Source: Methanobacteriota archaeon
GTDB lineage: Archaea; Altiarchaeota; Altiarchaeia; IMC4; QMZM01
DNA length: 40,913 bases
Reading direction: 5' to 3'
Assembly: GCA_903930485.1 (NCBI GenBank)
Contig: CAIYYO010000245.1
Location: forward strand, 1-40,913
Shown here: piece after piece, positions 1-36,850 of the stretch
Position numbering within the stretch: position 1 is the stretch's first letter
How the letters are laid out: each line of letters opens with the position of its first letter
Translations under genes and position numbers: made by a program
The notes under the pieces: model-generated
What the model saw: only the letters and a program-made list of their open reading frames with translations
Told to the model about the DNA's origin: nothing
Databases searched by the model: none

Positions 1-806
1 ATGCATCCTCCTCCGGATTCGGGCGAAAGCAATACGTAGAACACGTTATTGGTCTGGATGGCCTTCACCGGGAAATACCCGGACTTTGTCGGGAACTTGG
101 CCTTTACTACTGCGCCTTCCCAATCCAGCACGACTGCGTTCGAGCCGTAGGCGACGAAGAAGCGGTTCGGGCCTACTGCGAGAGCGACCGGGTCCTTCTG
201 GCCGCTGTCTATCTGGAATGCGTCTTTGTGGAGCGTCCCGTCCATGTTGAAAATGACGCCGTAAAAGTCCCCAATATGGTAAGTACCGTATTCGAATACG
301 CATTCCCCGACTAGGAGGAACCGCCCGCCTCCGCTTTTCGGATACCAGAGAGTGGAGGTCGTGCTCGTCGAGGTCGTAGTAGTCGTGACGGTCGTGACGG
401 TTACGAAAGTCCAGGTCGTGGTCGAGGTAGAGGTCGTAGTCGTGGGAGGCGCGGTCCTGATGCAGTCGCATTTGAATTCCTTCATGTCCGAGCCGTGGAC
501 GATATAATTCACGGTCGGGCAGGCGATTATGACTATTATAAAGGCGATGAAGCCCTGTATAACCATCTTCTTGGCCGCGCCTTTGCGCTCTGAGTCTTCG
601 CTGGTCGAATATTTCAGGCCGGAGACGACGACGAGCAGGGCGAGGATGGCCGTGGCAAGAGCCCACAAAACGCACAGGACGAGCCTTACGGCGTCTTGCA
701 TGCGCCAGCCGATGAAGCTAAGAGGCGACGACGAGTTGCCTTGGCCGTAGGCTGCGGCGGCGAGGATGCAGACTATCACGAGAAGATGGATCGATCGGTT
801 TTCCAT
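1..806 (-). CDS. Secreted/membrane-anchored protein: VirB2/TrbC-type pilin-like helical hairpin + Thr-rich linker + beta-rich ectodomain (paralog of 850..2322; C-terminus runs off the window)
   Basis: Absent from the ORF track because it is open to base 1. My reverse-strand translation from the ATG at 806 reads MENRSIHLLVIVCILAAAAYGQGNSSSPLSFIGWRMQDAVRLVLCVLWALATAILALLVVVSGLKYSTSEDSERKGAAKKMVIQGFIAFIIVIIACPTVNYIVHGSDMKEFKCDCIRTAPPTTTTSTS...GGRFLLVGECVFEYGTYHIGDFYGVIFNMDGT..., with no stop down to base 3. It is colinear with, and about 75-80% identical by eye to, the N-terminal ~270 aa of the neighbouring gene. Confidence 0.8.
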   Translation of the reverse strand, partial: MENRSIHLLVIVCILAAAAYGQGNSSSPLSFIGWRMQDAVRLVLCVLWALATAILALLVVVSGLKYSTSEDSERKGAAKKMVIQGFIAFIIVIIACPTVNYIVHGSDMKEFKCDCIRTAPPTTTTSTSTTTWTFVTVTTVTTTTTSTSTTSTLWYPKSGGGRFLLVGECVFEYGTYHIGDFYGVIFNMDGTLHKDAFQIDSGQKDPVALAVGPNRFFVAYGSNAVVLDWEGAVVKAKFPTKSGYFPVKAIQTNNVFYVLLSPESGGGC

Positions 807-825
807 TCCGTTTATATTATTATGT

Positions 826-845
826 CCGCGCCTTATATAGAAATC
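826..845 (-). promoter_or_regulatory. TATA-box promoter of the 1..806 gene (near-leaderless)
   Basis: The minus strand reads tttcTATATAAggcgcggacataataatataaacggaATG. The TATA element ends about 26 nt before the ATG. The block is almost identical to 2346..2360, upstream of the paralog. Confidence 0.55.
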
Positions 846-849
846 CCAT

Positions 850-2322
850 TTACCAGTCGTACGCCGCCCATCCAGGAGATTCCGCCATGACCAGAGGCAG
901 GGTGTCGACTACGTGGTTTCCGTTGAAATCCAGGAACGATGCGCCTATCCCGTCGTCGGTAGTATGTATGGCCACGATCCCTACGAACATGTGGTTGCCG
1001 TAGGCGAGGCTCGTCGGCACGTCGCCGTGTCCGCCGAAGGTTCCGGGGCCGACGACGTTCCCGTCCTCGTCGAGGTATTCCGCTACGTTGTTGTAGGCTT
1101 CCATGAATTTCCCGTCGCCGTAGACCATGTCGTGGACGCACACTATATCGGCCGATGTTGTTTTAGATGTCTGGTAAACGCCGTTGAGATCGTAGATGAA
1201 AACTTTGTCGAGGAAGGCTACTATGAAGTATTTTTGCCCCGCCTCCACTTCTGCGTTGATAAACCCGCATTCCGGTGAGCTTATCGTCGTTACCTCGAAC
1301 TTGCCCTTCACCTGATTCCCGGAGAGGTCATAGATGATCCCGTATATCACGCTGTTCGTGTGGTCCGTCCATGTTATGAACAATTTGCCGTTCCCGAGAG
1401 CCATGTCGCCTTCGGCGAAATAGTCCCCGCCGAACCCCAGGGCAGAGGTTCCTATCTTGTCGATGGCCACAGAATAAGTGTTCTGGAGGTCCCCGTCGAG
1501 GCCGTAGACTTGTATGACGCATCCGGTGCCCGTTTTCGGCGAAAGGAGGACATAGTATTTGCTGTTGGCCTGTATGGCTTTTATCGGGATGTATCCTGCC
1601 TTTGTCGTGTACTTTGCCTTGATAGTGTTGCCTTCCCAGTCCAGTATCACGGCATTCGAGCTGTATCCTACGAAGAACCTGTTAGGGCCTACTGCGAGAG
1701 CGACCGGGTCTTGTACGCCGCTGTCTATGAAGAAGGCGTTCTTGTGGATGGTTCCGTCCATGTTGAATATGACTCCGTACATATCCCCTTCATGATAGCT
1801 CCCCCAGTCGAATATGTCGATGCCTACTAGGAGGAACCTTCCGCCGCCGCTCTTGGGGTACATCGTCGTCGTGGTAGTAAAGGTCGTGGACGTCGTGGAA
1901 GTTACCGTCGTGACGGTAGCAAATGTCCAGGTCGTAGTCGTCGTCGAAGTCGTGGTCGTGGGCGGAACGACCCTGATGCAATCGCATTTGAACTCCTTCA
2001 CGTCCGAGCCGTGGACGATGTAATTTACGGTCGGGCAGGCGACGACGACTATTATGAAGGCGACGAAGCCCTGTATCACCATCTTCCTGGCTTTGTCTTT
2101 CTGTTCCGAGTCCCCGCTCGTCATGTATTTAAGCCCGGAGACGACGACGAGGATGGCAAGGACAGCCGTTGTAAGCGCCCACAGCGCGCACAAAACGAGC
2201 CTTGCGGCGTCTTCCAGACGCCAGCCGATGAAATGAAGCGGCGACGACGAGTCCCCCTGCGCATAGGCCGCGGCGGCGAGGATGCAGACCACAGTGAGAA
2301 GTTGGATCGTTTTGTTTTCCAT
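850..2322 (-). CDS. Secreted/membrane-anchored protein: signal peptide + VirB2/TrbC-type pilin-like hairpin + Thr-rich stalk + ~370-aa beta-rich (propeller-like) ectodomain
   Basis: ORF 850..2373. The likely start is MENKTIQLL at 2322, because the conserved TATA box lies inside the longer ORF. Signal peptide ...AAAAYA/QG. Hairpin LVLCALWALTTAVLAILVVVSGLKYMTSGDSEQKDKARKMVIQGFVAFIIVVVACPTVNYIV, followed by EFKCDC. Thr/Ser run PPTTTTSTTTTTWTFATVTTVTSTTSTTFTTTTT. The rest is repetitive and beta-strand-like. Confidence 0.85.
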   Translation of the reverse strand: MENKTIQLLTVVCILAAAAYAQGDSSSPLHFIGWRLEDAARLVLCALWALTTAVLAILVVVSGLKYMTSGDSEQKDKARKMVIQGFVAFIIVVVACPTVNYIVHGSDVKEFKCDCIRVVPPTTTTSTTTTTWTFATVTTVTSTTSTTFTTTTTMYPKSGGGRFLLVGIDIFDWGSYHEGDMYGVIFNMDGTIHKNAFFIDSGVQDPVALAVGPNRFFVGYSSNAVILDWEGNTIKAKYTTKAGYIPIKAIQANSKYYVLLSPKTGTGCVIQVYGLDGDLQNTYSVAIDKIGTSALGFGGDYFAEGDMALGNGKLFITWTDHTNSVIYGIIYDLSGNQVKGKFEVTTISSPECGFINAEVEAGQKYFIVAFLDKVFIYDLNGVYQTSKTTSADIVCVHDMVYGDGKFMEAYNNVAEYLDEDGNVVGPGTFGGHGDVPTSLAYGNHMFVGIVAIHTTDDGIGASFLDFNGNHVVDTLPLVMAESPGWAAYDW

Positions 2323-2345
2323 TCCGTTTATATTATTATGTCTGC

Positions 2346-2360
2346 GGCTTATATAGAAAG
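2346..2360 (-). promoter_or_regulatory. TATA-box promoter of the 850..2322 gene
   Basis: The minus strand reads ctttcTATATAAgccgcagacataataatataaacggaATG, the same spacing and sequence as 826..845. Confidence 0.55.
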
Positions 2361-2429
2361 GGCCGGTTATCATTCGTCCAACGATGTTTATGTTATTTCT
2401 TCAGCTAATACAATAAACTTTAGATTAAA

Positions 2430-4780: not shown

Positions 4781-5815
4781 ATGGTCAACAAATACTTGAT
4801 AGGGGTCTTCCTCATTCTTCTGGCCCTCTCTACTGTCTACTATCTGGGTAATTCCATGATGCCCTCCAAAAACGAGGTCGTAGTATACGTGTCCGCAGAC
4901 CAGGATTATTCCGAGCCCGTGCTCAAGGACTTCGAAAAACAGACCGGGATAAAGGTGAAGGCGGTTTACGATACAGAAGCCTCGAAGACCGTCGGCCTCG
5001 TCAACAGGCTGATAGCAGAAAAAGACAGGCCTCAGGCCGACGTTTTCTGGAACAACGAGCTCATAAGGACGATCCTGCTGAAAGAGAAGGGAGTCCTTGC
5101 CCCATACAATTCTCCCGGGGCTGCAGGCAAGCCCGTCGAATACAAGGACCCGGAAGGATATTGGACGGGTTTTTCAGCAAGGACTCGGGTCATAATCTAC
5201 AATACCGGATACATAAGCCCTGCCGATGCGCCTGAATCCTTGAGCGACCTGAAAAATCCTAAATGGAACGGAAAGGTCGGCATCGCGAATCCCGCCCTCG
5301 GGACGACCGGCGACCAGGTGGCGGCCCTTTTTTCGCTATGGGGCGACGATGCGGCGAAGGGTTATTTCAATCAGCTGAAAGACAACGGCGTCAAAGTGGT
5401 CGACAGCAACGGCATGGTCAAAAGCCAGGTGGCTGCAGGGGATCTCTGGCTGGGACTTGCGGATACCGACGACGCATACGGCGCGATCCAGAGCGGCAAG
5501 CCCGTTGCCATGGTATTCCCTGACCAGAAAGAAGGCGAGATAGGTACCCTGATGCTTCCCCACAGCGTGATGCTCATCAAGGGCGCGCCGCACGAAGGCA
5601 ACGGAAAAAAGCTGATAGACTACCTACTAAGCGACCAGGTCGAGCAGATGTATGCGAATTCCGGGATCAAGACGATACCGCTTGGAAACGGCGTGCAGCG
5701 CCCTGATAACGTGCCTTCCTTGGATTCGATCAAGACGATGAACGTGACCCAGTACGAGGTGTATTCGAGCCTGAACCGTTCCCAGGATTTTATTACCCGA
5801 CTCCTAATAAATTAA
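4781..5815 (+). CDS. ABC transporter substrate-binding protein, iron(III)/FbpA-AfuA-like family
   Basis: 344 aa. N-terminal membrane anchor, then VVVYVSADQDYSEPVLKDFEKQTGIKVKAVYD...ADVFWNNE, typical of family-1 solute-binding proteins of Fe3+-type importers. First gene of a three-gene ABC operon. Confidence 0.75.
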   Translation: MVNKYLIGVFLILLALSTVYYLGNSMMPSKNEVVVYVSADQDYSEPVLKDFEKQTGIKVKAVYDTEASKTVGLVNRLIAEKDRPQADVFWNNELIRTILLKEKGVLAPYNSPGAAGKPVEYKDPEGYWTGFSARTRVIIYNTGYISPADAPESLSDLKNPKWNGKVGIANPALGTTGDQVAALFSLWGDDAAKGYFNQLKDNGVKVVDSNGMVKSQVAAGDLWLGLADTDDAYGAIQSGKPVAMVFPDQKEGEIGTLMLPHSVMLIKGAPHEGNGKKLIDYLLSDQVEQMYANSGIKTIPLGNGVQRPDNVPSLDSIKTMNVTQYEVYSSLNRSQDFITRLLIN

Positions 5816-5817
5816 AG

Positions 5818-7512
5818 ATGTCCTCCAGGTCCTGGCTGAAAATAATCGCGATAACTTCTTTTCTCATCCTCTCGGTCCTGCCGGTCGCGTATATGTACGT
5901 CTCGAGCTTCAATCTTTCAAGATATACCTGGATCTTCGAGGACGTACGGCAGCAGCACATGTTCGAGACTACCATGATCCTTGGATTAGGCACCGCGCTC
6001 CTGTGCATCCTGCTCGGGGTCAGCATAGCGGTCCTGCTCGAATACACTGACATCCCGTTCAAGTCCTGTCTCTCGGTCCTTGTGATAGTCTCCTTGCTGA
6101 TACCTCCTTACATCATGGGCATATCCTTTCTGTCGTTCATAGGCAAGAACTGGGTGACCTCGGAAATCAAGGAACCCAATCCTGAAGTAGCCTCGATGGT
6201 TCGGAGAGACCGGGGCATCACGAACTCGGCCATGAATGCCGCAGCCCTGCAAAACACTTTACTGAACAAGACCGCCGTCACAATGCCCCCCGTCCAGCAA
6301 AAACCGTGGTACATCCCCTACAACATAGACCCCTACAACGTGCAATGGGCTATAGTCATCCTCTCCCTGGCCCTTTTCCCGATAGTGTTCCTGCTGACGT
6401 CTTTCGCGCTAAGGAACATCGACGAAAGGATGATCGACGCAGCACTTCTCCTCCGCAAGCCGTTGGGAGCGATCTGGAGGGTGAGCCTTCCGATGGTTCT
6501 TCCCCAGATACTCGTAGGCGGCCTGATCGTCTACATTTTCGCGATATCCGAGCTCGGGGTCCCGTCGGTCATGCGCGTCGATACGACGACGATGGAGGTC
6601 TTCAACCACTTTACAGGGTTCTTCGACATAAGCCAGGCCCTTGCGCTGACCGTGCCTTTGGCGTTCTCGATAGCGGTCCTGATACTTGCCGCCCAGCTCA
6701 TCATAGGAAAAAAGCCTTTTTTCACGGTTCCGTCGGCGGCAGAGGGCCGCGTCATCCTGAAGCTGGGCAAGGCGCAGAAGGCGCTCGGACTCGGATACAT
6801 ATTCGCCGTGATAGCCGTTTCGTCCGCGATGCCCCTCGGCATCCTTTTATACAACTCCGGCCTCGCAGTCCTCCCGGCCCTGGAAAAAGCAGGAGACTCC
6901 ATTCTAAACAGCCTTTTCCTGTCGATATTCTGCTCGACGCTGATACTAGTGCCTTCATTCTTCATCGCCTACTTCTACAAGGGAGTGAAGTGGATGGACT
7001 ACTTGATACTCGCGCCATTGATAGCCCCGAGCGCGGCCCTCGGCATAGGCATGATAGGGGTCTGGAACAACGGTTACACGGCATTTGTTTACGGAAGTTT
7101 CCTCGTGCTGGCGTTCGGCTACCTTGCAAGGTTCCTCCCGTTCACGATAAAGACCCTTGAGCCGTTCATGGCGCAGGTGCCGGCTTCGGTCGAGGAATCC
7201 GGAAGGCTCGCCGGCGCCTCGTTCACGAAGACCGTGAGCGGCATACTCGCGCCTCTCCTGAAGCCCGGTCTTCTCACAGCGTGGCTGATAGCTTTCATAC
7301 TATGCATGAGGGAGCTGGACCTTTCGGTCATGCTGACGCCGCCCGGATTCCAAACCCTTCCGAACAGGATATTCACACTCTACCACTACGGAGACATCAG
7401 GACCTCGTCGGTGCTGTCGCTCTTTCTGGTAGCCATCGTCGTGGTCCCCTACATCGCAATCGTATTCATGAGCAACGCGTCAAAATGGCATACATCGAAC
7501 TCAAAGAAGTGA
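5818..7512 (+). CDS. ABC transporter permease with two fused transmembrane domains, FbpB/AfuB-like
   Basis: 564 aa and polytopic. Its size and duplicated permease modules are typical of iron(III)-type importer permeases. It starts 3 nt after the binding-protein stop. Confidence 0.8.
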   Translation: MSSRSWLKIIAITSFLILSVLPVAYMYVSSFNLSRYTWIFEDVRQQHMFETTMILGLGTALLCILLGVSIAVLLEYTDIPFKSCLSVLVIVSLLIPPYIMGISFLSFIGKNWVTSEIKEPNPEVASMVRRDRGITNSAMNAAALQNTLLNKTAVTMPPVQQKPWYIPYNIDPYNVQWAIVILSLALFPIVFLLTSFALRNIDERMIDAALLLRKPLGAIWRVSLPMVLPQILVGGLIVYIFAISELGVPSVMRVDTTTMEVFNHFTGFFDISQALALTVPLAFSIAVLILAAQLIIGKKPFFTVPSAAEGRVILKLGKAQKALGLGYIFAVIAVSSAMPLGILLYNSGLAVLPALEKAGDSILNSLFLSIFCSTLILVPSFFIAYFYKGVKWMDYLILAPLIAPSAALGIGMIGVWNNGYTAFVYGSFLVLAFGYLARFLPFTIKTLEPFMAQVPASVEESGRLAGASFTKTVSGILAPLLKPGLLTAWLIAFILCMRELDLSVMLTPPGFQTLPNRIFTLYHYGDIRTSSVLSLFLVAIVVVPYIAIVFMSNASKWHTSNSKK

Positions 7513-8159
7513 GCAAGGCATTTGCCGGAAAGTCGGTAGTGAAAGACGTATCCCTTGAGATAGAACGCAGCACCGTGACAGGGATAATGGGCCGTTCGGG
7601 AAGCGGAAAAACAACGCTCCTGCGGATGTTATCCGGCCTCGAGACCCCGGATTACGGAGAGATAACCATCGATGGAGTAAAAGTATTCTCCTCAAAGGAA
7701 AAGATAAACGTCGCGCCGGAGAAAAGGAATGTCGGCATGGTCTTCCAGGAATACGCTCTCTGGCCCCACATGAACGCCGGACAACACATAGCGTTCGTTC
7801 TGGAGGCGAAGAAGATCCCCTCAAAAAAGCGCCCGGCCCTGATAAAAAAATACCTCGCCCTTATCCGCATGGAAGGAAGAGAGACGTCCTATCCCGGACA
7901 GCTTTCCGGCGGCGAGAAGCAGAGGCTCGCCCTCGCAAGAGCGCTGGCGCAGGAGCCGCGGATACTCCTTTTGGACGAGCCATTCTCCAGCCTCGACAAA
8001 GAACTAAAGGAAGGATTCCGCGAAGAGATAAAAAGGGTGCGGGAGACGCTGGAGACGACCATACTCTACGTGACACACAACTCCGAAGACCTTGAAGGCC
8101 TCGCGGACAATATGGCCCGGATAGAGAAGGGAAAGATCATAATGCAGGGCCGGTTGTGA
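7485..8159 (+). CDS. ABC transporter ATP-binding protein
   Basis: The start is set at MAYIELKEV (ATG 7485); the ORF-track start at 7281 lies inside the permease. Walker A GRSGSGKTT, signature LSGGEKQR, Walker B ILLLDEP. Confidence 0.9.
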   Translation: MAYIELKEVSKAFAGKSVVKDVSLEIERSTVTGIMGRSGSGKTTLLRMLSGLETPDYGEITIDGVKVFSSKEKINVAPEKRNVGMVFQEYALWPHMNAGQHIAFVLEAKKIPSKKRPALIKKYLALIRMEGRETSYPGQLSGGEKQRLALARALAQEPRILLLDEPFSSLDKELKEGFREEIKRVRETLETTILYVTHNSEDLEGLADNMARIEKGKIIMQGRL

Positions 8160-8179
8160 TGCATCTTCGATGCATTATG

Positions 8180-9217
8180 TCATCTCGTTCTTCTGTAGAT
8201 CACGTAGGCTACGATGAGGAGGAGGGCAGCCGGAACGATATAGATCAGATAACCAAGGATGTTATCTCCCTGTTTCCCGGTTACGGGCGCAGTGGTCGGA
8301 ACGCTTTCATTGCCTGCGGCCAGGCAGTCGGGGTCGTCTCCGGGCCGGCAGTCCGGGTCGCATATGCCGTCTTTCACCGCGTCGCAGTATCCGTCGTACG
8401 AGCCTGAGGGGCAGTCCTTTCGGCAGTTGAGATAGTTCTCGCCTTCTTCGCATAGGCCGTTCCCGCAGTCGGTTGAAATGGTTGGCGTGACGGGTCTGGT
8501 CGAGGTCGTCGGCCGGGTCGTCGTGTCCGTGGCCACGGATGAACAATCAGGGTCCTGTCCGGGCAAGCAGTCGGGGTCGCATATCCCGTCGGCCCGTTTG
8601 GTGCAGAACCCGTCCCTATTTTCGGGAGGACAGTCCACCGGGCAGTTTACATGGTTCTCGTAAGGCTTGTCGCAGTACCCGTTCGAGTCGCAGGCGCAGT
8701 TCGGGTCTAAATCTCTGCCGCAGTCCGGGTCGCACACGAAGTCGTCGAAGGGGACGCACCAGCCGTCCAGGGCCGCAGGCGGGCAGTCCTGCGGGCAGTT
8801 CACAAAATTCTCCTGCGAGACGTCGCATCTCTCGTCCCCGCATCCCGGCGGAGCCGGAACACTCCGGTTATCGCAGATCTTCCCTATCCGGCTCACCTGG
8901 GACATGTCCCCGTAGTAGTCGAGCAGGCTGCGGAGAGTGATGCCTTTGCCCGCCAGCTCGCCGGACGAGATATTGTCTCCGCATTTGTAACCTAGATGGC
9001 TTTTGGTCTTCCAGAAGACATCGCTCGACATATCGTATAAGTATCCGTCAACCATCACCCAGCAGCGGTTGTTCTGTATAGCATCCTGCAGGTCTGACGA
9101 GAGATAGCATCGCTCCTCCTTCAGGTCTAAGACGCTGGCGGCAGATACGCCCGACAGGATGAAATACGCGGCCGCGATCGATGCCATGAGCGATAAAAAT
9201 TTTTTTCCGGTGACCAT
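8180..9217 (-). CDS. Secreted, C-terminally membrane-anchored protein with three Cys-rich ~50-aa modules
   Basis: 345 aa. Signal peptide, then three modules of the form CG(D/N)x(x)C...EN(x)xNCxxDCP...DG(W/F/Y)C...(D)GICDPDC.PG.DPDC. A TDTTTRPTTSTRPVTPT linker follows, then a C-terminal TM helix and YRRTR. Confidence 0.8.
   Translation of the reverse strand: MVTGKKFLSLMASIAAAYFILSGVSAASVLDLKEERCYLSSDLQDAIQNNRCWVMVDGYLYDMSSDVFWKTKSHLGYKCGDNISSGELAGKGITLRSLLDYYGDMSQVSRIGKICDNRSVPAPPGCGDERCDVSQENFVNCPQDCPPAALDGWCVPFDDFVCDPDCGRDLDPNCACDSNGYCDKPYENHVNCPVDCPPENRDGFCTKRADGICDPDCLPGQDPDCSSVATDTTTRPTTSTRPVTPTISTDCGNGLCEEGENYLNCRKDCPSGSYDGYCDAVKDGICDPDCRPGDDPDCLAAGNESVPTTAPVTGKQGDNILGYLIYIVPAALLLIVAYVIYRRTR
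8324..8842 (-). repeat. Three in-frame Cys-rich coding repeats (residues ~126-174, 176-225, 251-298 of the 8180..9217 product)
   Basis: Repeat units CGDERCDVSQENFVNCPQDCPPAALDGWCVPFDDFVCDPDCGRDLDPNC / CDSNGYCDKPYENHVNCPVDCPPENRDGFCTKRADGICDPDCLPGQDPDC / CGNGLCEEGENYLNCRKDCPSGSYDGYCDAVKDGICDPDC RPGDDPDC. Confidence 0.8.
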
Positions 9218-10263: not shown

Positions 10264-11901
10264 ATGGCACAAGGACAACAGATATTTATTTTGCCCGAAG
10301 GGGCGCTTAGGACGACAGGAAGAGACGCGCAGAGAAACAACATAGCGGCGGCCAAAGCCGTTGCTGAGACCGTGAGGACCACCCTTGGTCCGAGAGGGAT
10401 GGACAAGATGCTTGTCGACGATTTGGGAGACATCGTCATAACCAACGACGGAGCGACCATAGTCCAGGAGATGAACATCGAACACCCGGCAGCCAAGATG
10501 GTAGTCGAAGTCGCAAAGACGCAAGATGAAGAAGTAGGCGACGGAACAACTACGGCAGTCATATTGACCGGCGAGCTATTGTCGAACGCAGAGAAATTAC
10601 TCGAACAAGGCATACACCCGTCCATCATCGTAAGAGGATACAGGATGGCGGCCGAGAAAGCGGACGAGATACTACAGACGATAGGAAAAGACGTCGTGCT
10701 AAAAGACGAAAAACTCCTCCAGCAGATAGCCCAGACCGCGATGACCGGAAAAGGCTCTGAATCCTCGAAGGAGAAATTGTCGGACCTGGCTGTTCGCGCG
10801 ATAAAGCAGGTCTCAGAAACCGTAGACGGAAAGATCAAAATAGACCTCGACAACGTAAAGGTCGAAAAGAAGGAAGGCGGAAGCATCAGCGACTCGGAAC
10901 TCGTACAAGGACTGATAATAGACAAGGAAAGAGTCTCAGGCAACATGCCCAAGATGGTCAAGAACGCGAAGATAGCGCTAATCGACGCCGCAGTCGAAGT
11001 AAAAAGCACCGAGACCGAAGCAAAGATACAGATAACAGACCCCTCGCAATTGCAGGCATTCCTGACCCAGGAAGAGAACATGATAAAAGACATGGTCGAC
11101 AGGATAGTGAAAAGCGGCGCAACAGTCGTGTTCACGCAGAAGGGAATAGACGACCTGGCGCAGCACTACCTCGCAAAAGCCGGGATATTCGCGGCACGAA
11201 GGGTAAAGAAATCCGACATGGAGAAACTGGCCAAAGCGACGGGCGCAAGCATACAGACCAACCTGAAAGACCTGTCCAGCAAAGACCTCGGATTCGCAGG
11301 CGAAGTCGAAGAAGTCAAGATCGCTAAAAACGAGATGACGTTCGTGCGCGGATGCAAGAATCCCAAGGCGGTAAGCATACTGATAAGAGGCGGGACAGAG
11401 CACGTCGTAGACGAAGTCGAAAGAGCAATGACCGACGCACTAGGCGGTGTCGCAGCAGCGCTGGAAGTAGGCAAAGTAGTCGCAGGCGGAGGAGCAGCAG
11501 AGATTGAACTCGCACGCCAGATACGCAAATACTCAGGAAGCGTAGGCGGACGGGAACAGCTCGCAATAGACGCATTCGCCGACTCCATCGAGATAATCCC
11601 GAGGACTCTAGCCGAAAGCGCAGGAATGGACGCGATCGACACATTAGTGAAGCTGCGAAGCGACCACGACAAAGGAAAAGACGGAATGGGAGTGATGGTA
11701 CTCGAATGCACGACAGGCGACATGCTGAAAGCAGGCATCATCGAGCCCCTGAAGATAAAAACCCAAGCCGTAAAATCCGCAAGCGAAGCAGCCCAGCTGA
11801 TACTAAGGATAGACGACGTGATCGCCTCATCCAAGAAAGGAGGAGGAATGCCCCCGGGCGGAATGGGAGGAATGGGCGGCGGAATGGAGGATATGGATTA
11901 A
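10264..11901 (+). CDS. ths: Thermosome subunit (group II chaperonin)
   Basis: 545 aa. [39 protein letters not shown], and a GGM-rich tail [14 protein letters not shown]. Confidence 0.97.
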
Positions 11902-11970: not shown

Positions 11971-12065
11971 CAGTGTCGATTTTTTCTAGTAAACCATGCC
12001 TATGCCCCTTAATTCTTCACCGACCTTTCAGAGGTGGTTACAAGGCTCGGTAAGCTAAAATTAAA

Positions 12066-12455
12066 ATGGAACCTATTACAAACGAGGTGTTGACGACAAT
12101 CTTGATGCTAGGACTACTGGCTTTCTTAGTTGAGAAAAGATTTAGTGGAAGATGGACGATAGTCGCAAATAGCGTTATTGTATATCTCTCCATATTCCCT
12201 CTTATAGCTGTCATCCCGGATTACCTACAAGCTTGGACAATGGGCGGATTAATAGCTGGTGTGTTATGTGCTTTATCCTATCTAAGAAAGGAACAATTAT
12301 ATCCTCCTATATCTCGTCTTTTTTATTGGCTTTACAGTTCTAAAACGGTTCTAGGGGTCTATCTTGCATATACCATAGGTTACCCATATTTATCGCTTGC
12401 CTTTGCGATTGTAATATGGATTATTGCCTTAACGAAACTGAAACATGCTGTTTAA
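12066..12455 (+). CDS. Small polytopic membrane protein (hypothetical), inside the AT-rich island
   Basis: 129 aa with about four hydrophobic helices. Its codon usage and G+C are clearly lower than those of the flanking genes. No family recognised. Confidence 0.5.
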   Translation: MEPITNEVLTTILMLGLLAFLVEKRFSGRWTIVANSVIVYLSIFPLIAVIPDYLQAWTMGGLIAGVLCALSYLRKEQLYPPISRLFYWLYSSKTVLGVYLAYTIGYPYLSLAFAIVIWIIALTKLKHAV

Positions 12456-12465
12456 AAATAAATTA

Positions 12466-12497
12466 TTTTTTTCTTTTTCTTATCTATTTTTTTTAAA
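12466..12497 (+). terminator. Poly-T terminator tract
   Basis: tttttttctttttcttatctatttttttt lies immediately after the stop at 12455. Confidence 0.4.
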
Positions 12498-12625
12498 CGT
12501 CTGCGATTTTACGAAGTCATTGACTCGTGGGCCGCTGGATTTGGGTCGAGTTAGGAGCAGCCGAAAGAGACGTTTGAATCCTATCCCTCATTAATCTTAA
12601 TATTCTGCCTCCTCATAATCTACTG

Positions 12626-14041
12626 ATGCGATCTTCAATTTCAGAAAATAAGTTTTTGGATTCAATAAAACACTTAGGTACAACTTTGGGTAGAACACCA
12701 AAGTTTGAAGAGTGCTCCAAGATTCCTGGCTTTTATGCATATTACAGGAGATTCAAATCACTGAAAACGATTCTTGACAGAGCTGGATTGTTAAATGAAA
12801 TTAAGAGATGCATCTTTTGTGGTAACTCATTTTCTAGGAGAGATTTTTCTATTTGTCACTTTAATAGAGCAAAATTCTGTTCAGCAAAGTGTAGAAAGAA
12901 GGCCGAAATCGCTAGCGAAAACAAGAAAAAAAGAGACAAGGAATATTATCTAATGAATAGGGAAAAAATAATAAAGCGAGTAAGAGAATATGAACTCCGA
13001 AACAAAAAACCGTTGGAGAGTCGGATTTGTTTACTTTGTAAGACCAGGTTTCAGCCGAAAATTGCTTTTCAAATATTTTGCTCGGATAAATGCGCCAAAG
13101 AATACTCCCGTACTGTACGGCACCCTGAGATATCCAAAGCCAAAGCGAAAAAGGGATGGGAGAAACGTAAACTTGCTGAAAATGAAAGAAGAAAGATACT
13201 AGGGCTTCCTCTTATTGGTGAAGGGTATGCTGCGGAAACAGAAATGAAATTAGTCTTAGACACAATTTTTTACAATAAAGAAAAAATCGATAATGGTTAC
13301 TGGGTAGTAAGAGACGGAATTCTGATAACTAAAGCGGGCCGTTTAGGAGGTCGTCAATTAGATCGGTATTATCCAAAACTCAAGTTGGCTTTTGAATACC
13401 GAGGGGAACAACATTATAGTAGAAGGAGCTACTACTATCAGGGAGAGCCTCGTTTTATCAAAACACAACAATGGGACAAAGAAACAGAAGATATGTGTGA
13501 AAGGACAGGTGTTTGTTTGGTTATCCTAAGTTGGAAAGACCGATTATGGCGAGATAATATTCTAAAAAAAATTATTGAACGTGGGTTTGATGTTACTCTT
13601 GAAATGCTTGAACCAAGAGCAGTTAAATGGAAAAGACCAGAATCAAAAGAAGTAATAGGGTTATATCTCAACGGGACGCGTACTCACGACATTGCAAAAA
13701 AATATGGTGTTAGAGCATCTCTAATAAGAAAAATACTAAAAATGAGCGGCGTTAGGCTTCGCAGTAGAAGCGAGGATTCAAAACTAATGTGGAAGAAAGA
13801 GGGCTTCAGAGAGTTGTATTCAAAACGAACAATAGGAATTCCTTCTCCTAAGCGGCAAATCTATAAAGAGGAGGACATTAAAAAGATTATTTTCCTGTAT
13901 AACCAAGGTCATTCGACTCTTCAAATATCCAAAATAACTGGGTACACTCCTATGTCAGTTTTAACTGTTCTTCGATTGAATGGTGTTAAGATAAGAACGA
14001 GAAGCGAAGCTGCCAAGCTTAGATATTCAAAAAATCGATAA
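12626..14041 (+). CDS. Homing-endonuclease-like multidomain protein: HEAR repeat + 2 FCS-type zinc fingers + PD-(D/E)XK (Vsr/DUF559-like) nuclease core + 2 C-terminal HTH modules
   Basis: 471 aa.
- N-terminus: FLDSIKHLGTTLGRTPKFEE...YYRRFKSLKTILDRAGL, the homing-endonuclease-associated-repeat pattern.
- Zinc fingers: CIFCGNSF...FCSAKCRKK and CLLCKTRF...FCSDKCAKEY (FCS type).
- Nuclease core: ETEMKLVLD...QLDRYYPKLKLAFEYRGEQHY.
- C-terminal duplicated modules: HDIAKKYGVRASLIRKILKMSGVRLRSRSE and LQISKITGYTPMSVLTVLRLNGVKIRTRSEA. Confidence 0.65.
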   Translation: MRSSISENKFLDSIKHLGTTLGRTPKFEECSKIPGFYAYYRRFKSLKTILDRAGLLNEIKRCIFCGNSFSRRDFSICHFNRAKFCSAKCRKKAEIASENKKKRDKEYYLMNREKIIKRVREYELRNKKPLESRICLLCKTRFQPKIAFQIFCSDKCAKEYSRTVRHPEISKAKAKKGWEKRKLAENERRKILGLPLIGEGYAAETEMKLVLDTIFYNKEKIDNGYWVVRDGILITKAGRLGGRQLDRYYPKLKLAFEYRGEQHYSRRSYYYQGEPRFIKTQQWDKETEDMCERTGVCLVILSWKDRLWRDNILKKIIERGFDVTLEMLEPRAVKWKRPESKEVIGLYLNGTRTHDIAKKYGVRASLIRKILKMSGVRLRSRSEDSKLMWKKEGFRELYSKRTIGIPSPKRQIYKEEDIKKIIFLYNQGHSTLQISKITGYTPMSVLTVLRLNGVKIRTRSEAAKLRYSKNR

Positions 14042-21447: not shown

Positions 21448-22335
21448 ATGTTGCTACTACCCGTGCTTGTCGTGCTCGCATCTATCGTGTTCCTGGGACT
21501 CGCCAGCCTGGCCGACCTGCGCACCGGAGAAGTCCCGGACGGACTAAGCTACGGCTATACGGTTGTGATGATCCTGCTTGCGGCCTACGGCTCTTACACA
21601 TTCAATGACACCTCGCTTGTGACCGACTCCCTCATAATGGGTGCATGTTTTTTCATAGCCGGGTTCTTAATGTTCTACCTCGGGCAATGGGGCGGCGGAG
21701 ACGTGAAAGTCCTAGCAGGGATAGGCTGCGCCCTCGGATCCCTCAACCATATAGGATACCTTCCGCAGGCCGCGCTCTCCTTTTATCCCTACTACCTGTC
21801 GTACCTGACAAACCTGATCTTCATAGCGTTCCCGTATGCCGCGATCTACGGCCTCGTTATCGGCTTCAATAATCCCGACACGCGGAAGGAATTCGGCGCC
21901 TACGTTGGAAAGGCCAGGACAAAGGCGATATTGATAGCGTCTTTGTCCCCCTCGCTCCTTGCATTCCTCGTAAACCTCCAGAAGCTGGCCTCGTTCTATT
22001 TACTCCTGCCGGTCATGCTCACCGTCGCGCTTTACCTCAAAGCGGTCGAGAAAACAGCACTCAGGCAGTCAAAGGATGTAAAGGACCTGCGAGAAGGCGA
22101 CGTCGCGGCAGAAGACCTCGCTTGCGGCAACGAAACAATCGCGAGCAAGAGAGACATCGAAGGCATGAGCCCGGACGCTATCAAAAAGATCCAGGAACTG
22201 TCTGCAAAGGGAGAGCTTCCGGGCAGGATAGTAATAAAAAGAGGCATCAAGTTCACGCTTGTATTGTTCCTCGCATTCCTAACGTCAGTCTACCTCGGCA
22301 ACCTGGTGGAGATAATCACTGGTTTGCTGATATAG
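21448..22335 (+). CDS. A24-family aspartic prepilin/preflagellin peptidase (FlaK/PibD/EppA/TadV-like), copy 1
   Basis: 295 aa and polytopic. First catalytic Asp in LASLADLRTGEVPD, second in the GxGD-type motif QWGGGDVKVLAGIG. There is no methyltransferase domain. Confidence 0.8.
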   Translation: MLLLPVLVVLASIVFLGLASLADLRTGEVPDGLSYGYTVVMILLAAYGSYTFNDTSLVTDSLIMGACFFIAGFLMFYLGQWGGGDVKVLAGIGCALGSLNHIGYLPQAALSFYPYYLSYLTNLIFIAFPYAAIYGLVIGFNNPDTRKEFGAYVGKARTKAILIASLSPSLLAFLVNLQKLASFYLLLPVMLTVALYLKAVEKTALRQSKDVKDLREGDVAAEDLACGNETIASKRDIEGMSPDAIKKIQELSAKGELPGRIVIKRGIKFTLVLFLAFLTSVYLGNLVEIITGLLI

Positions 22336-22345
22336 CGACGGCTGG

Positions 22346-24280
22346 TCAGCACTGGAGGGCCGGCAGCGTCGAGAGATAATCCATGCACTTCTGGCAGAAA
22401 GCCCTCGGACCTGGAGCGTTGGCCGCGCTCATAATGCATCTGCCGCCTGCAGGGTCTTTATTCCCGAAACATGTTCCGTCGTCCCGATTAGACGAGCACA
22501 GGGTTCCGCCTGCGCAGTATCCTGTCCATTTGCTCTCGCTGGCGTCTCCTCCGCCGATAAGGGCGTCAAGGCAATTGGCTTTGGAGTTGGCGTCATGCGG
22601 AAAACACCTGCACGTGTCCCTGTACTCGTCGTTCAGTCCCCAGCCGTGACCCAGCTCGTGCAGCGCGTAATAAGGCATATCAGGCTCGGCCGCCCCCTGA
22701 GTGTAAACGACGCCGCTTCCCGGCCAGTCGAAGCCGCCTATCTCGCCTCCGCAGGTGCTGAGGTCCTCCATCCCGATGAAATAGGTCGCATCCGAAGTCT
22801 TGTCTTTGCCGCAGGCCTTTATCGTCTCCATGAGCTTTTCCTGGAAAGCCCCGGCAGAGCATTCCGCGTCCGTGGCCGGGATGGTGATGGCGCATTGCTT
22901 GTCGGTAGTGCTGAATTCCACTTTGGCAGGGCAGTTCTTCAGGGGTGTGAGCGTCTTGATCAGGTTTGCGACTTCGTTGGCTTTGTCCGTGAAGCTCAGA
23001 GAATTCCATGAGCCAAGCTGGACGAAAACGAATTTCAGTTTAGTTGTGGGGTTCGGGACAGGCGCGTTCACCGAGACTTTGGCCGCGGCCGAGACGGTCA
23101 CCGTGTCGCACAAACACCCGTACGACACCGTGTAATCGCCGTTGCCGGGATAGAAATTCTTCTCGCTCGTGGAGGCGGAATCCACCTGTTTAGGGCCGTC
23201 GACCCCGCCCCAGTCCAGCCCGCATTTCTCGCACAACACGCTGGCTCCGGCACTGTTCACGTATCCGTTGCTGAGAGTCGCATAGACTGTGCTGTACGGG
23301 ACCGAAGATTCGCTCCTGCCCTGGAAAGAGCCCAAAGTCAGGCCGACCTTGGCGGTGCATGTCGGATCATACGTGCAGCAGCAGCCTCCGGGACAGGTCT
23401 TGCATTTCTCCTGCTGCTTGCACGTTTTCATATTCATCCCTTCGCCGCAGACATAGTTGCATTTGTCGTCGCATGCGCTCTTTATGACGATTATCTGACA
23501 AAGCTGGCCGTACTTTGCGGCATCAGCCGTCCATTTCCCGCCGGCGCAGCAGAGCTTGTCCGGGTTTTCCCTGCACGGACAATCGGTTCCAGTGCATGCC
23601 TCCCCGGCGACGTATTTCGAGGTTGTTCCCCCGATGACGAAAGAATACGACCCAAGGTTGGTGCAATCGCAATTCAACGGAGAAATAGCCCCGCCGGTCA
23701 CGTAATTCAGGGCCGGGATCGCTATCCCAAGGAAAAGCAGGCCGACAAGCGCGTTAATGACCCAGCCGCGCATCACTGCCCTGAGATGCGGATCTCCGGA
23801 GGACATGTACCTTAGAGCCGCCACAAGGATTATCAATGCCGCGACGAATGCTGCGACGTATTCGAACAGGCATATTACGCGGCACGAGACGGCGTCGAAG
23901 AATTCCTTTATCTGGTGATGGGGCGTGCATGCGCAATTGAAGGATGCGAAGACCTTTTTAGTCAGGCCCTGCTGCGACCCTTCGACGAACATGTTCAATG
24001 CGGGCAGGGCTATCAAAACCAGCACGAGGCCCACCATTGCATACATTATATAACTCTTCATAGAGTGCCTTACGCCGGGGTCGTCGGACGTCATGTAGCG
24101 AAAGCCCGAGAGGACGATGACGACGGCAGATATCGCGAGGATGACGTATTCGATAAAGCAGGCCATGTTGCAGACTATGGAATCATAGACGCCCTTCAGC
24201 TCCGTTGAGATCGGGCCCGCGTAAACCGGCGTCACGACAAAGAAAAACAATGCCGCGGCAAGCAGTAGTCTGTACTCCAT
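22346..24280 (-). CDS. Secreted membrane protein: two tandem VirB2/TrbC-type pilin-like hairpins + Cys-rich region + metzincin-like Zn-protease motif (HExxHxxGxxD)
   Basis: 644 aa.
- Signal peptide ...TPVYA/GP.
- Hairpin 1: ILAISAVVIVLSGFRYMTSDDPGVRHSMKSYIMYAMVGLVLVLIALPALNMFV ... FNCAC.
- Hairpin 2: AAFVAALIILVAALRYMSSGDPHLRAVMRGWVINALVGLLFLGIAIPALNYV ... LNCDC.
- About 45 Cys follow.
- YALHELGHGWGLNDEY at 22646..22660 (HELGH).
- A possible Met-turn, GRCIMSA, lies 70 residues further on. Confidence 0.8.
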   Translation of the reverse strand: MEYRLLLAAALFFFVVTPVYAGPISTELKGVYDSIVCNMACFIEYVILAISAVVIVLSGFRYMTSDDPGVRHSMKSYIMYAMVGLVLVLIALPALNMFVEGSQQGLTKKVFASFNCACTPHHQIKEFFDAVSCRVICLFEYVAAFVAALIILVAALRYMSSGDPHLRAVMRGWVINALVGLLFLGIAIPALNYVTGGAISPLNCDCTNLGSYSFVIGGTTSKYVAGEACTGTDCPCRENPDKLCCAGGKWTADAAKYGQLCQIIVIKSACDDKCNYVCGEGMNMKTCKQQEKCKTCPGGCCCTYDPTCTAKVGLTLGSFQGRSESSVPYSTVYATLSNGYVNSAGASVLCEKCGLDWGGVDGPKQVDSASTSEKNFYPGNGDYTVSYGCLCDTVTVSAAAKVSVNAPVPNPTTKLKFVFVQLGSWNSLSFTDKANEVANLIKTLTPLKNCPAKVEFSTTDKQCAITIPATDAECSAGAFQEKLMETIKACGKDKTSDATYFIGMEDLSTCGGEIGGFDWPGSGVVYTQGAAEPDMPYYALHELGHGWGLNDEYRDTCRCFPHDANSKANCLDALIGGGDASESKWTGYCAGGTLCSSNRDDGTCFGNKDPAGGRCIMSAANAPGPRAFCQKCMDYLSTLPALQC

Positions 24281-29365: not shown

Positions 29366-30457
29366 GTGATGCAACCCCTGCTCGATCTATTCTCGGTATT
29401 GACGGCGCTGGCCGGCTGTTTTATCGCCCTCAGGTCCGACCTGGCGACCGGGAAGATCCCTAATAGGCTGACTAATAGAATGCTTGCGGCATCGTTTATT
29501 CTGATGATCCTCCGGGTTTTTTCAGGGGACTCGTCATACCTCGGGCTGTATCTTCTGAATTTCGCAGCAGGCTTCGTCATCGGGTTCGTTTTCTGGTACG
29601 TCCAGGCATGGTCGGGCGGAGACGCCAAGATATTCTGGGCCATCGCATCCCTGATACTAGTTTATCCTCCGGCGCTGGAGGGGTTGTTTGGGGTGAGCCA
29701 GCCTTATTATTCCTCTCAGGTTTTTGCAGTGACCGTACTTTTCAACATGGGGCTGCTGCTCCTATTGCGTTTTCTTTTCATGGGATTAACCAAATTCCTG
29801 AAAGAAGGAAAGATAATAGACGCTTTCAGGCTCACGACGTCCCCGATGATCTATATCATGGCGTCTACCTTGATCGGGACCGGATTGGCGGCCGTGGCAG
29901 GAATACCTGCCTTGATTTACGTTTCGTGGCCGGTTATCTTTCTCCTTTCCGTAATAGAGCGGAGCTCGTACAGGAAATTCCTGGTTTCATCGGCTCTCAT
30001 AGCCGTTCTAGGGTTCGCGGCACTATCTCTGACGTCTAAACAGAACATTGCCTACGAACTGCTCTCGAACAAGCAAACGCTTGGCATAGCATTCCTCCTT
30101 TCGGCTTATGCAGCAGGCTCAAGGATCCCTTTCACGAAAAATATGCCCATCAAGGATTTAAAGACAGGGATATCGGTGGCCGAGGAAATATACACCACGG
30201 ACGGCTCGATCATCCGCGAGGAAGTCAATCCTTCCCTTATGTATTCCTTTCTCTCGATTCTGAAGCCCAGGAGAAACTATATCGTCCGTCCCACCCCGGC
30301 AGGCCTTTCAGAAAGGGACATAGAGGAGTTGAAAACGCATGAAGCCGATCTTGGAGGTTCCATTAAGGTAAACCAGAGCTTCCTGTTGATGCCCTATATA
30401 ACCGCCGCCCTGCTGCTTTCTCTGTATGCTGATTTCCTGTGGATCCTGCTTTCCTGA
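29366..30457 (+). CDS. A24-family aspartic prepilin peptidase (TadV/CpaA/PibD-like), copy 2, adjacent to the pilus locus
   Basis: 363 aa and polytopic. First Asp in IALRSDLATGKIPN, second in AWSGGDAKIFWAI. The start is GTG 29366 or ATG 29369. Confidence 0.78.
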   Translation: MMQPLLDLFSVLTALAGCFIALRSDLATGKIPNRLTNRMLAASFILMILRVFSGDSSYLGLYLLNFAAGFVIGFVFWYVQAWSGGDAKIFWAIASLILVYPPALEGLFGVSQPYYSSQVFAVTVLFNMGLLLLLRFLFMGLTKFLKEGKIIDAFRLTTSPMIYIMASTLIGTGLAAVAGIPALIYVSWPVIFLLSVIERSSYRKFLVSSALIAVLGFAALSLTSKQNIAYELLSNKQTLGIAFLLSAYAAGSRIPFTKNMPIKDLKTGISVAEEIYTTDGSIIREEVNPSLMYSFLSILKPRRNYIVRPTPAGLSERDIEELKTHEADLGGSIKVNQSFLLMPYITAALLLSLYADFLWILLS

Positions 30458-30470
30458 TTCCCGCGGGGAA

Positions 30471-32339: not shown

Positions 32340-32346
32340 GTTCTCT

Positions 32347-34683: not shown

Positions 34684-34936
34684 TTTGGATTTGCAGAAGG
34701 TAGACTAGGTTAAATAATAGAAATATATATGTATTAAATGTTTATAAATTATGTATATATTATGGTAATTGTTCATAAATAAGCCATTAAATAGTAATAA
34801 ATGTCTGGAAATAATGTAATCGGGCTTATGAACCTGCTTTAGGGGTTAATCTATAGAATTATAAATATTGTTTAATATTTAAATACAAATTACATATAAT
34901 TTACTAATAAATTTAAAGATAAACGACAAAAGTAAA
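34684..34936. promoter_or_regulatory. Very AT-rich divergent control region between the ATPase operon (-) and the pilin operon (+)
   Basis: 253 bp, far more AT-rich than the coding flanks. It contains many TATA-like elements, e.g. catataat at 34893..34900, about 37 nt upstream of the first pilin ATG. Confidence 0.5.
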
Positions 34937-35155
34937 ATGTCAAACAAAATACGAGAGTTTCTAGGAGACGAAAGAGGAGACACAAGCACGGTATTCAAGC
35001 TAGTGCTTGCCATAACGGTGATAGCGGCAGTCCTGGTGATACTGCTATACGTACTGCAGAGCGCGCAGACAGGCGGAAGAAAACTGACGAGTACGCTGAA
35101 CGATACCACAGGGCAGATCACCGAGAACCTGACGAACTTCTCCAAGTCGGCGTAA
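34937..35155 (+). CDS. Flp-like small type IV pilin (class III signal peptide), paralog 1
   Basis: 72 aa. MSNKIREFLGDERG/DTSTVFKLVLAITVIAAVLVILLYVL: an Flp-type leader F-x-x-DE-[RK]-G followed by a hydrophobic helix. Confidence 0.8.
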   Translation: MSNKIREFLGDERGDTSTVFKLVLAITVIAAVLVILLYVLQSAQTGGRKLTSTLNDTTGQITENLTNFSKSA

Positions 35156-35186
35156 GGGTGCTCTATTTTGCGGGATCGCCACAGAA

Positions 35187-35399
35187 ATGGAGAGTTTAAG
35201 GAACTTCTTTCGAGATGAACGAGGCGCATCCTCGATGGTGATAAAACTGGTGCTCGCCGTTACTTTGGGTGCGGCCGTTATCGTTATAATGCTCCAGCTG
35301 ATGCATGTGAACCTGGAAGTAGCTTCGAACAGCTCAAGCACCATGAGATCCGGCGCAAAGAATGCAATGGACGGAACTATGAAACAAATATCGGATTAA
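35187..35399 (+). CDS. Flp-like small type IV pilin, paralog 2
   Basis: 70 aa. MESLRNFFRDERG/ASSMVIKLVLAVTLGAAVIVIMLQL. Confidence 0.8.
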   Translation: MESLRNFFRDERGASSMVIKLVLAVTLGAAVIVIMLQLMHVNLEVASNSSSTMRSGAKNAMDGTMKQISD

Positions 35400-35400
35400 A

Positions 35401-36846: not shown

Positions 36847-36850
36847 CAGG

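Follow-up and report, generated by a model that had tools for sequence, protein, structure and literature searches.

A VirB2-superfamily hairpin as a likely carrier of surface ectodomains in Altiarchaeia

The window analysed here is the whole contig CAIYYO010000245.1 (assembly GCA_903930485.1), 40,913 nucleotides (nt) read on the forward strand. Its left end carries two tandem paralogous genes, A and B, whose products combine a signal peptide, a hairpin in which a basic loop connects two hydrophobic helices, a stalk rich in threonine, and a beta-rich ectodomain. A first-pass annotation, made from the letters alone, had described this layout together with the EFKCDC motif and the Thr/Ser run that follow the helices, and every one of these details is present in the sequence. 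Most likely, the element is a hairpin of the VirB2 superfamily that serves in Altiarchaeia as a modular, cysteine-stapled and stalk-bearing carrier of ectodomains and that has also been expanded in tandem. The archaeal host named in that annotation is borne out by the thermosome encoded at 10264-11901, which shares 95% identity with a protein labelled Candidatus Altiarchaeia archaeon; the other named top matches all belong to Altiarchaeota/Altiarchaeales.

Genes A and B and their ectodomain

Gene A lies on the minus strand at 850..2322 and is a complete coding sequence of 490 amino acids (aa) plus stop, with homologs P0002-P0009. Its open reading frame (ORF) spans 850-2373. The ATG at 2322 (MENKT...) is the likely start and is placed there because the paralog gene B begins at the equivalent methionine. 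Residues 1-22 (2257..2322) are read from the sequence as a Sec-type signal peptide, which AlphaFold2 models as a helix at residues 4-21 and whose cleavage is predicted after AYA (...AAAYA, before QG). The hairpin module follows at 1969..2256 (residues 23-118) and is supported by the Pfam family PF18895, hydropathy, charge and an alignment of nine hairpin modules (A1). An amphipathic lead-in is succeeded by C45, the first transmembrane helix (TM1), the loop GLKYMTSGDSEQKDKARK, the second helix (TM2) with ACPTVNY, and then HGSDVKEFKCDC. The hydrophobic spans, residues 39-68 and 77-106 (Kyte-Doolittle, 19-residue window), enclose a loop, LKYMTSGDSEQKDKARKMV, with 5 K/R and a net charge of +2, the flanks being -1 and 0. 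In both genes the loop follows the pattern GLKY[MS]TS[GE]DSE[QR]K..A[RK]K, TM2 carries ACPTVNYIV and HGSD[VM]KEFKCDC comes next, with EFKCDC at residues 110-115 of gene A. The Thr/Ser stalk (1843..1968, residues 119-160) is 64% T/S and predicted to be disordered; short tandem DNA repeats lie inside its coding region at 1867-1959. The ectodomain of ~330 aa occupies the remainder (853..1842, residues 161-490).

Gene B (1..806, minus strand) is the tandem paralog; the window's left edge cuts it, leaving 268 codons visible. Its signal peptide is encoded at 741-806, the hairpin at 453-740, the Thr stalk at ~327-452 and the start of the ectodomain at 1-326. The full-length form is represented by P0003 (520 aa) from an independent ENA assembly, which has an identical N-terminus and directly follows a 507-aa gene A product. 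The DNA of the two genes is ~77% identical over the shared part and 90% identical between positions -36 and +24 relative to the start codon. No strong case for gene conversion between them can be made, as the identity is fairly even (67-90%) and the start-codon region alone stands out. The gene A architecture is seen again in contigs assembled independently in ENA, JGI and Logan (P0002, P0004 on two contigs, P0005, P0006, L006 and L009). This recurrence rules out an origin as an assembly chimera, a doubt that had been raised with the first annotation of the long ORFs.

The AlphaFold2 model of gene A was computed with a nine-sequence family alignment as input and has a mean predicted local distance difference test score (pLDDT) of 73. 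The hairpin is modelled as two long antiparallel helices, residues 36-68 and 72-104, at pLDDT 56-73, and the stalk falls below 50 (residues 97-159). Residues 161-490 form ~30 strands in blocks mostly at pLDDT 80-96. A Foldseek search of the PDB with the model returns 645 matches at E <= 1e-3, led by Kelch, WD40 and designed propellers, the best propeller matches having E = 5e-10 and a target-normalised TM-score of ~0.6. The modelling proposed in the first annotation thus yields a confident beta-propeller, and the ectodomain of gene A is predicted to belong to this fold class. The claim is restricted to the fold class because the propeller has no assignable sequence family, neither Pfam nor PDB sequences giving a match.

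The propeller family comprises 10 clusters in a database of 5.8 billion proteins. Full-length alignment searches found it at one locus in GTDB genomes (L006) and at two in JGI metagenomes (L009 and L010); with so few loci, the family is rare. The L006 gene at 7344-8495 encodes the same propeller family, 42% identical to gene A and 65% to P0009. However, its N-terminus carries a lipobox-like sequence (...VVLLPGC) and a short Ser/Thr linker instead of the hairpin and the long Thr stalk. Since the gene starts merely 165 nt past the preceding one, no hairpin is hidden ahead of it. These sequences show that the anchor was swapped between propeller orthologs, and the lipobox-like form suggests that the ectodomain would work when simply tethered to the membrane. 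The proteins P0008 and P0009 had been considered as free, ectodomain-only propellers, which is rejected, as contig ends cut both inside the poly-Thr run.

The hairpin family, its partners and its tandem forms

The first-pass annotation had assigned the hairpin to the pilins of type IV secretion systems (T4SS), related to VirB2/TrbC, and this stands in part: the similarity to the T4SS_pilin profile is above threshold for gene A, but the TrbC/VirB2 match and the visible part of gene B are sub-threshold. The Pfam gathering scores are 26.6 bits for T4SS_pilin (PF18895) and 27.9 bits for TrbC/VirB2 (PF04956). PF18895 matches the whole gene A protein at 27.1 bits (E = 4.4e-6, residues 46-95) and its hairpin alone at 29.5 bits (E = 8.1e-7). 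The pilin claim is weakened by the visible part of gene B, which reaches 22.6 bits (E = 1.1e-4), and by PF04956, which gives gene A 16.9 bits as a whole and 20.9 bits for the hairpin. With the NCBIfam model of the Mbov_0395 pilin-like conjugal transfer protein gene A scores 24.5-30 bits (cutoff 40), and the models of VirB6-like ICE transmembrane proteins match it weakly, far under their cutoff.

The relatives P0004-P0007 bear precomputed PF18895 matches, and the PF04956 threshold is passed by P0031 (35.4 bits), P0062 (28.9), P0133 (28.4) and P0136 (29.9). The hairpin profile derived from A1 returns five short proteins from the database of 5.8 billion proteins; stand-alone pilins of the type known from the candidate phyla radiation (CPR), with PF18895 and PF04956, are reached at E = 7e-7. 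This word-index search overlooks most hairpin relatives, and an exhaustive HMMER search of 1.84 billion representatives with the same profile is fuller, giving 6404 matches at E <= 1e-3 and 315 at E <= 1e-10. At E ~1e-37 to 1e-63 the family profile ties genes A and B to members over both the PF18895 and the PF04956 threshold, among them P0031, P0062, P0133 and P0136. Among the 64 long family members, 63 match T4SS_pilin and 30 match TrbC at E < 1e-4. The relatives that pass both Pfam thresholds and the CPR pilins reached by the profile argue that the module family as a whole is a member of the VirB2/TrbC/T4SS_pilin superfamily, and make a generic transmembrane pair unlikely. The columns that are invariant in A1 are C19, Y40, A69, P71, N74, C87 and C89. 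They include a cysteine triad made up of a single Cys at TM1's outer end and of the CxC pair ~10 residues past TM2.

The stand-alone PF18895 pilins of CPR/Patescibacteria resemble genes A and B in their signal peptide, two hydrophobic helices, tandem paralog arrays and Pfam match, and share the loop G-x-[KR]-Y-x-[TS]-S-G-D ... K-x-A-[KR] as well as N-[YF] after TM2. They differ in being ~100-140 aa long, in standing alone and in lacking the Cys/CxC triad, and virB4 is close to their genes in 1135 of 1948 assemblies (58%). Genes A and B, on the other hand, carry a fused Thr stalk and a 330-aa propeller, are archaeal and have no T4SS genes nearby; at 490 and 520 aa, gene A and P0003 fall outside the size of a small stand-alone pilin (~70-140 aa, signal peptide plus hairpin). 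No VirB4, VirB6 or VirD4 family was found in the scanned large ORFs of six loci, which are the window, the ERZ1426824 contig, L001, L004, L005 and L006. The absence of these genes from the window, already noted in the first annotation, holds for all large ORFs scanned.

TrbC/VirB2, CedA1 and TedC share with the present module the helix-loop-helix membrane hairpin, and P0031 and 30 of the 64 long members match PF04956, whereas gene A is sub-threshold for it and has no sequence or fold match to solved pilins. The Ced/Ted pilins are small, and their genes accompany those for CedA/CedB or TedA/TedB; such linkage to a VirB4-type ATPase and a VirB6-type channel is absent from the six loci. VirB2 and TedC are cleaved by signal peptidase (PMC9905601), as is predicted for the present proteins. 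A precedent for a pilin hairpin inside a larger membrane protein is given by CedA and VirB6, whose N-termini are homologous to CedA1 and VirB2 (PMC9905601), although in VirB6/CedA the hairpin is extended by more transmembrane helices in the membrane and not by a stalk and a soluble ectodomain.

Beyond the first-pass annotation, the conserved cysteine triad, tandem multi-hairpin proteins and a third fusion in the window come to light. The latter, P0031 (22346..24280, minus strand, 644 aa), scores 37.4 bits with PF18895 and 35.4 bits with PF04956, both over the gathering scores. It has two hairpins in tandem (~residues 24-116 and 121-207, nt 23660-24211), each closed by N-C-x-C, which are followed by a Cys-rich region and a C-terminal zincin-like domain (HELGHGWGLNDEY). 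The hairpins are modelled at pLDDT 70-89, and the C-terminal half is unreliable (mean pLDDT 44.6). Reprolysin_5 scores 22.5 bits, under threshold, PDB sequences give no relevant match to the zincin-like domain, and Foldseek of the model, with its unreliable C-terminal half, returns nothing under E = 1e-3. In a related contig P0042 has five hairpins, of which the first two are 42% identical to the P0031 pair. It is taken as the P0031 ortholog by position because the same Peptidase_A24, HAD and PfkB genes adjoin, and the hairpin copy number therefore varies between orthologs. In the window, a second Peptidase_A24 (prepilin peptidase) gene at 21448-22335 (plus strand) is convergent with the P0031 gene and lies 10 nt from its end. 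This adjacency recurs beside P0042 in another assembly and may be functional or merely inherited synteny.

The exhaustive search is headed by proteins that bear 5-17 tandem hairpins, among them P0036 with 17 hairpins in 1775 aa. The P0036 gene lies on an archaeal contig beside a ribosomal L39e gene, in a housekeeping context and with no T4SS genes nearby. Single polypeptides with 3-17 tandem T4SS_pilin hairpins, which we call polypilins, occur among P0036-P0179 and at L005 (10001-15328) and L007 (950-4393). They are of two types, Cys-bearing in archaea (P0036, for example) and Cys-free, CPR-like with 3-8 hairpins. The literature search found no description of such tandem proteins.

The partners of the hairpin in the 64 long members are PKD (7), CARDB (3), Peptidase_M64, Cohesin, NosD/beta-helix and Peptidase_C1 domains, all of them extracellular types. 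P0010, named 'pilin [Candidatus Altiarchaeota archaeon]' by NCBI, consists of a hairpin, CDC and a Thr stalk, followed by a large domain that matches C25 peptidases faintly; an ortholog is present in L006. Next to the gene A ortholog in L001 and L009 lies a gene for a signal peptide, a Cys-rich domain, a Thr linker, the hairpin, a Thr/Pro linker and a papain C1 peptidase, a layout that fits an extracellular position of both hairpin termini. The DUF333 protein that adjoins in both loci has a Thr-rich linker and a C-terminal transmembrane helix; judged from these sequences, a stalk plus an anchor appears to be a local design rule for surface proteins. Hairpin fusions stand side by side in L001 (two), L006 (four) and the window (three).

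Cys-rich repeat proteins, built of CGNGVCE..ENC..CP.DC units, and DUF333-like proteins with a Thr-rich linker and C-terminal transmembrane helix accompany the hairpin-fusion genes (L004 8257-9099; L006 164-928, 3289-4236 and 4304-4828; L001 13097-13990). The three kinds of gene together look like a conserved surface-protein island.

Many short, seemingly stand-alone matches stop right after the CxC or in the stalk, as a truncation at a contig end would give, and 44 of the 60 CxC-type proteins among the best 150 matches have at least 100 extra residues. Assembly breaks in the poly-Thr stalk occur at L003 1-120 and L008 3-140 and in the short proteins P0073, P0102, P0104 and P0126. Metagenome assemblies tend to break in the poly-Thr stalk, which mimics both anchorless ectodomains and stand-alone pilins. 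In practice, many family members come to resemble one or the other without being so.

Membrane anchor, filament or scaffold

On balance, the pilin-derived hairpin has probably been co-opted to anchor displayed domains in the membrane and is probably not a subunit of a DNA-transfer pilus, a reading that we hold with modest confidence. The products of genes A and B would be exported by Sec to the cell surface of an Altiarchaeia archaeon. Once the signal peptide is removed, the ~95-residue hairpin derived from VirB2/TrbC/T4SS_pilin would sit in the cytoplasmic membrane with the N-terminus out, the basic loop in and the C-terminus out. The cysteines of the outer face, one before TM1 and the CxC after TM2, would probably staple the hairpin ends by disulfides. 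The Thr-rich stalk of ~40 residues, probably O-glycosylated, would space the beta-propeller from the membrane, and the propeller is predicted to act as a binding or catalytic surface module. The hairpin itself would not polymerise. In this lineage it is joined to propellers, to peptidases of the papain-like, zincin/M64 and C25-like kinds, and to PKD, CARDB, cohesin and beta-helix domains, and it is also duplicated in tandem.

The out-in-out orientation agrees with hydropathy, charge distribution and the extracellular partner types. The C-terminal fusion had been placed outside the cell from the start, and the sequences continue to support this, because a cleavable signal peptide is followed by two spans with a positive-inside loop and because the partners are all extracellular. 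An anchor is preferred over a filament because of the lipobox-like propeller ortholog, the mostly exo-enzyme and adhesion partners, the chromosomal synteny and the lack of a VirB4 gene near the six loci. The alternative of a filament or an anchor, which the first annotation had left standing, is thereby tilted: the anchor and display role is favoured by the evidence and the decorated filament less so.

Several observations weigh against this reading. The margin of gene A over the PF18895 gathering score is narrow (0.5-3 bits). Neither the hairpin profile nor Foldseek matches a solved pilin in the PDB (helical hairpins being poorly discriminated by both), and PDB sequences searched with the whole-family profile give no relevant match. 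Solved pilins share negligible sequence similarity (PMC9905601), so that this missing match is expected. Y40, P71, N74 and the loop G-x-[KR]-Y-x-[TS]-S-x-D are common to the stand-alone pilins and exceed what anchoring needs. The identity of HGSDVKEFKCDC is 0.71-1.0 against 0.54-0.90 for the propeller, so that TM2 and the segment after it are conserved as well or better. Conservation beyond anchoring suggests a specific interaction, which could be oligomerisation, lipid binding or recognition by dedicated machinery. Proteins of 5-17 hairpins with little else are ill-suited to a pure anchor role. Finally, the T4SS scan covered the six loci, and a VirB4/CedB-type ATPase could sit elsewhere in the genome.

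A rival reading, which we regard as unlikely, is a decorated filament of conjugative type. Together with lipid, the hairpins would build a VirB2/TedC-like tube or protofilament, from which the stalks would project propellers and enzymes like a bottle brush. The multi-hairpin proteins would be covalently pre-linked subunits, and T4SS-like or novel machinery for assembly would have to be encoded elsewhere in the genome. Membership in the T4SS_pilin/TrbC family, the motifs common to stand-alone pilins, the strong conservation of TM2 and the segment after it, the presence of up to 17 hairpins in one protein and the tandem paralog arrays, which resemble those of CPR pilins, are all in line with a filament. 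The F-, T- and Ted-pilus structures show conjugative pilins with both ends facing outward from the filament (PMC9905601), so that topology permits fusions at the C-terminus, at the N-terminus or head to tail. By rough geometry, a stalk of at least 60 Å would give the propeller enough surface area per subunit, and the ~40-residue stalk could relieve crowding. On the other hand, the six loci hold no VirB4, VirB6 or VirD4 gene, the propeller ortholog would work with a lipobox-like anchor, genuine stand-alone major-pilin candidates of the CxC type are few and the gene context is chromosomal housekeeping. The literature search also brought up no conjugative pilin, from archaea or bacteria, to which a large domain is fused. 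Extended to all bearers of multi-hairpin proteins, the idea becomes that Altiarchaeia, other archaea and CPR build a VirB2-like surface polymer of a new type, whose subunits would bear enzymes and binding domains on glycosylated stalks or be pre-concatenated with up to 17 hairpins, and which would need no canonical conjugation system and be unrelated to DNA transfer; this proposal is tentative and, in our judgement, improbable. If hairpins do polymerise, the result would be a new kind of functionalised filament and of high interest.

Quite unlikely is an oligomeric scaffold, in which the hairpins would stay in the membrane, associate laterally through their conserved motifs and cluster enzymes or binding domains near transporters. 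Its logic resembles that of the Sulfolobus bindosome, in which sugar-binding proteins are organised by pilin-like N-termini. It would account for hairpin conservation beyond hydrophobicity, for the several different fusions side by side in L001, L006 and the window, and for propeller genes that repeatedly adjoin an ATP-binding cassette (ABC) importer, with the tandem hairpins as the covalent version of the cluster. However, the oligomerisation would have to be assumed, and the adjacency to the importer is broken in the window by two unrelated genes and may be inherited synteny.

Very improbable is a generic two-helix anchor, in which the Pfam match would be a compositional false positive without kinship to conjugative pilins. 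Gene A as a whole stands just 0.5 bits over the gathering score and the visible part of gene B under it, the TrbC and NCBIfam pilin-like models are sub-threshold for gene A, and solved pilins are matched neither by sequence nor by fold. However, the profile ties both genes to proteins that pass PF18895 and PF04956, 30 of the 64 long members match TrbC, the Y, P and N positions and TS-x-D in the loop do not vary, and stand-alone CPR pilins are reached at E = 7e-7. With P0031, the retrieval of CPR pilins, the exhaustive profile search and the TrbC matches, the generic pair is largely refuted. An internal signal-anchor, with a signal-like TM2 and a CxC that is lipid-modified or a cleavage site, so that the ectodomain would be a lipoprotein or be released, is highly improbable: although the basic loop, TM2 and invariant Cys mimic the layout of n-region, h-region and +1 Cys and an ortholog has a lipobox-like signal, ~10 residues (HGSDVKEFK) lie between TM2 and the Cys, the lipobox consensus is absent, the third invariant Cys before TM1 suits a disulfide better, and the motif recurs between the hairpins of multi-hairpin proteins, which cleavage would fragment.

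For the anchor and display reading, two kinds of archaeal surface protein offer comparison. The S-layer glycoproteins of haloarchaea have a Thr-rich, O-glycosylated stalk and a single transmembrane or lipid anchor. Such stalk-anchored proteins, of which the DUF333 neighbour is a local example, share with genes A and B the order of ectodomain, Thr-rich spacer and membrane anchor, whereas here the anchor is an N-terminal two-helix hairpin of the pilin family with conserved cysteines. The L006 ortholog follows the same design with its lipobox-like N-terminus. In the bindosome of Sulfolobus, solute-binding proteins carry class III signal peptides like those of type IV pilins and depend on the assembly system BasEF. 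As proposed here, a pilin-type N-terminal element there holds extracellular domains at the archaeal surface, and in both cases the genes adjoin ABC importers, but the bindosome belongs to the type IV pilus superfamily, with a single hydrophobic helix and processing by a prepilin peptidase. The first annotation knew of no characterised fusion of this kind in archaea and the literature search found none; it likewise turned up neither an account of pilin-hairpin fusions nor one of an Altiarchaeota T4SS.

Pilins of the VirB2 type count as small subunits dedicated to conjugative and T4SS pili, and here the module is portable, being N-terminal or internal. The setting is an archaeal phylum known for unusual surface structures. 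If the anchor reading is true, a conjugation component has been reused as a general device for surface display, and annotation gains a new class of archaeal membrane anchor for genes that are currently labelled 'pilin' or 'hypothetical'. Thousands of metagenomic PF18895 matches are now read as T4SS activity, a reading that needs care.

The surrounding genes

The window further encodes an aspartate kinase, a helix-turn-helix (HTH) regulator, an ABC importer, the thermosome, a major facilitator superfamily (MFS) transporter, a secreted subtilase and GEVED/PKD proteins. To these are added PfkB, a HAD hydrolase, DUF373, a PRPP synthetase, NucS, an archaeal type IV pilus locus and an XPD-like helicase. 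The flanking aspartate kinase, ABC importer and thermosome genes are conserved in related contigs, and by this gene order the hairpin-fusion genes appear to belong to the core chromosomal synteny and not to a mobile element. Neither Rfam families nor tRNA genes were detected in the window.

The sole secretion ATPase in the window is T2SSE, which stands beside T2SSF, a prepilin peptidase and three Flp-like prepilin genes; from its families, this cluster is assigned to a type IV pilus system that is Tad/Flp-like. The locus spans 29366-37327. Peptidase_A24 is encoded at 29366-30457 on the plus strand, T2SSF at 30471-32339 and T2SSE at 32347-34683, both on the minus strand. Three prepilin-like genes of ~70 aa follow on the plus strand (34937-35155, 35187-35399 and 35401-35613) and carry the motif F..DE[RK]G|[AD][ST]. 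The end of the locus is formed by a lamin-tail-domain protein (36043-36846) and a DUF7285-like protein (36827-37327).

The same ABC importer repeatedly adjoins the propeller fusions, at 4781-8159 in the window and at L003 1155-4750, L006 8500-11908 and L010 291-1424. Its parts are a binding protein of the PhnS/Fe3+/thiamine class, a double-domain permease and an ATPase, all under the NCBIfam equivalog cutoffs. From this recurrent adjacency, the propeller and the importer may be functionally linked.

In L010, an integrase/transposase-like ORF of 301 aa (1814-2719) lies between the gene of the ABC binding protein and that of the propeller fusion. In the window, a region of low guanine-cytosine content (37% vs ~55% elsewhere) occupies 12001-14041, between the thermosome and the MFS transporter. 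It contains an ORF of 471 aa at 12626-14041 (plus strand) with HNH_repeat, NinG-like and HTH matches, and by its composition and content the region looks like a foreign or mobile insertion.

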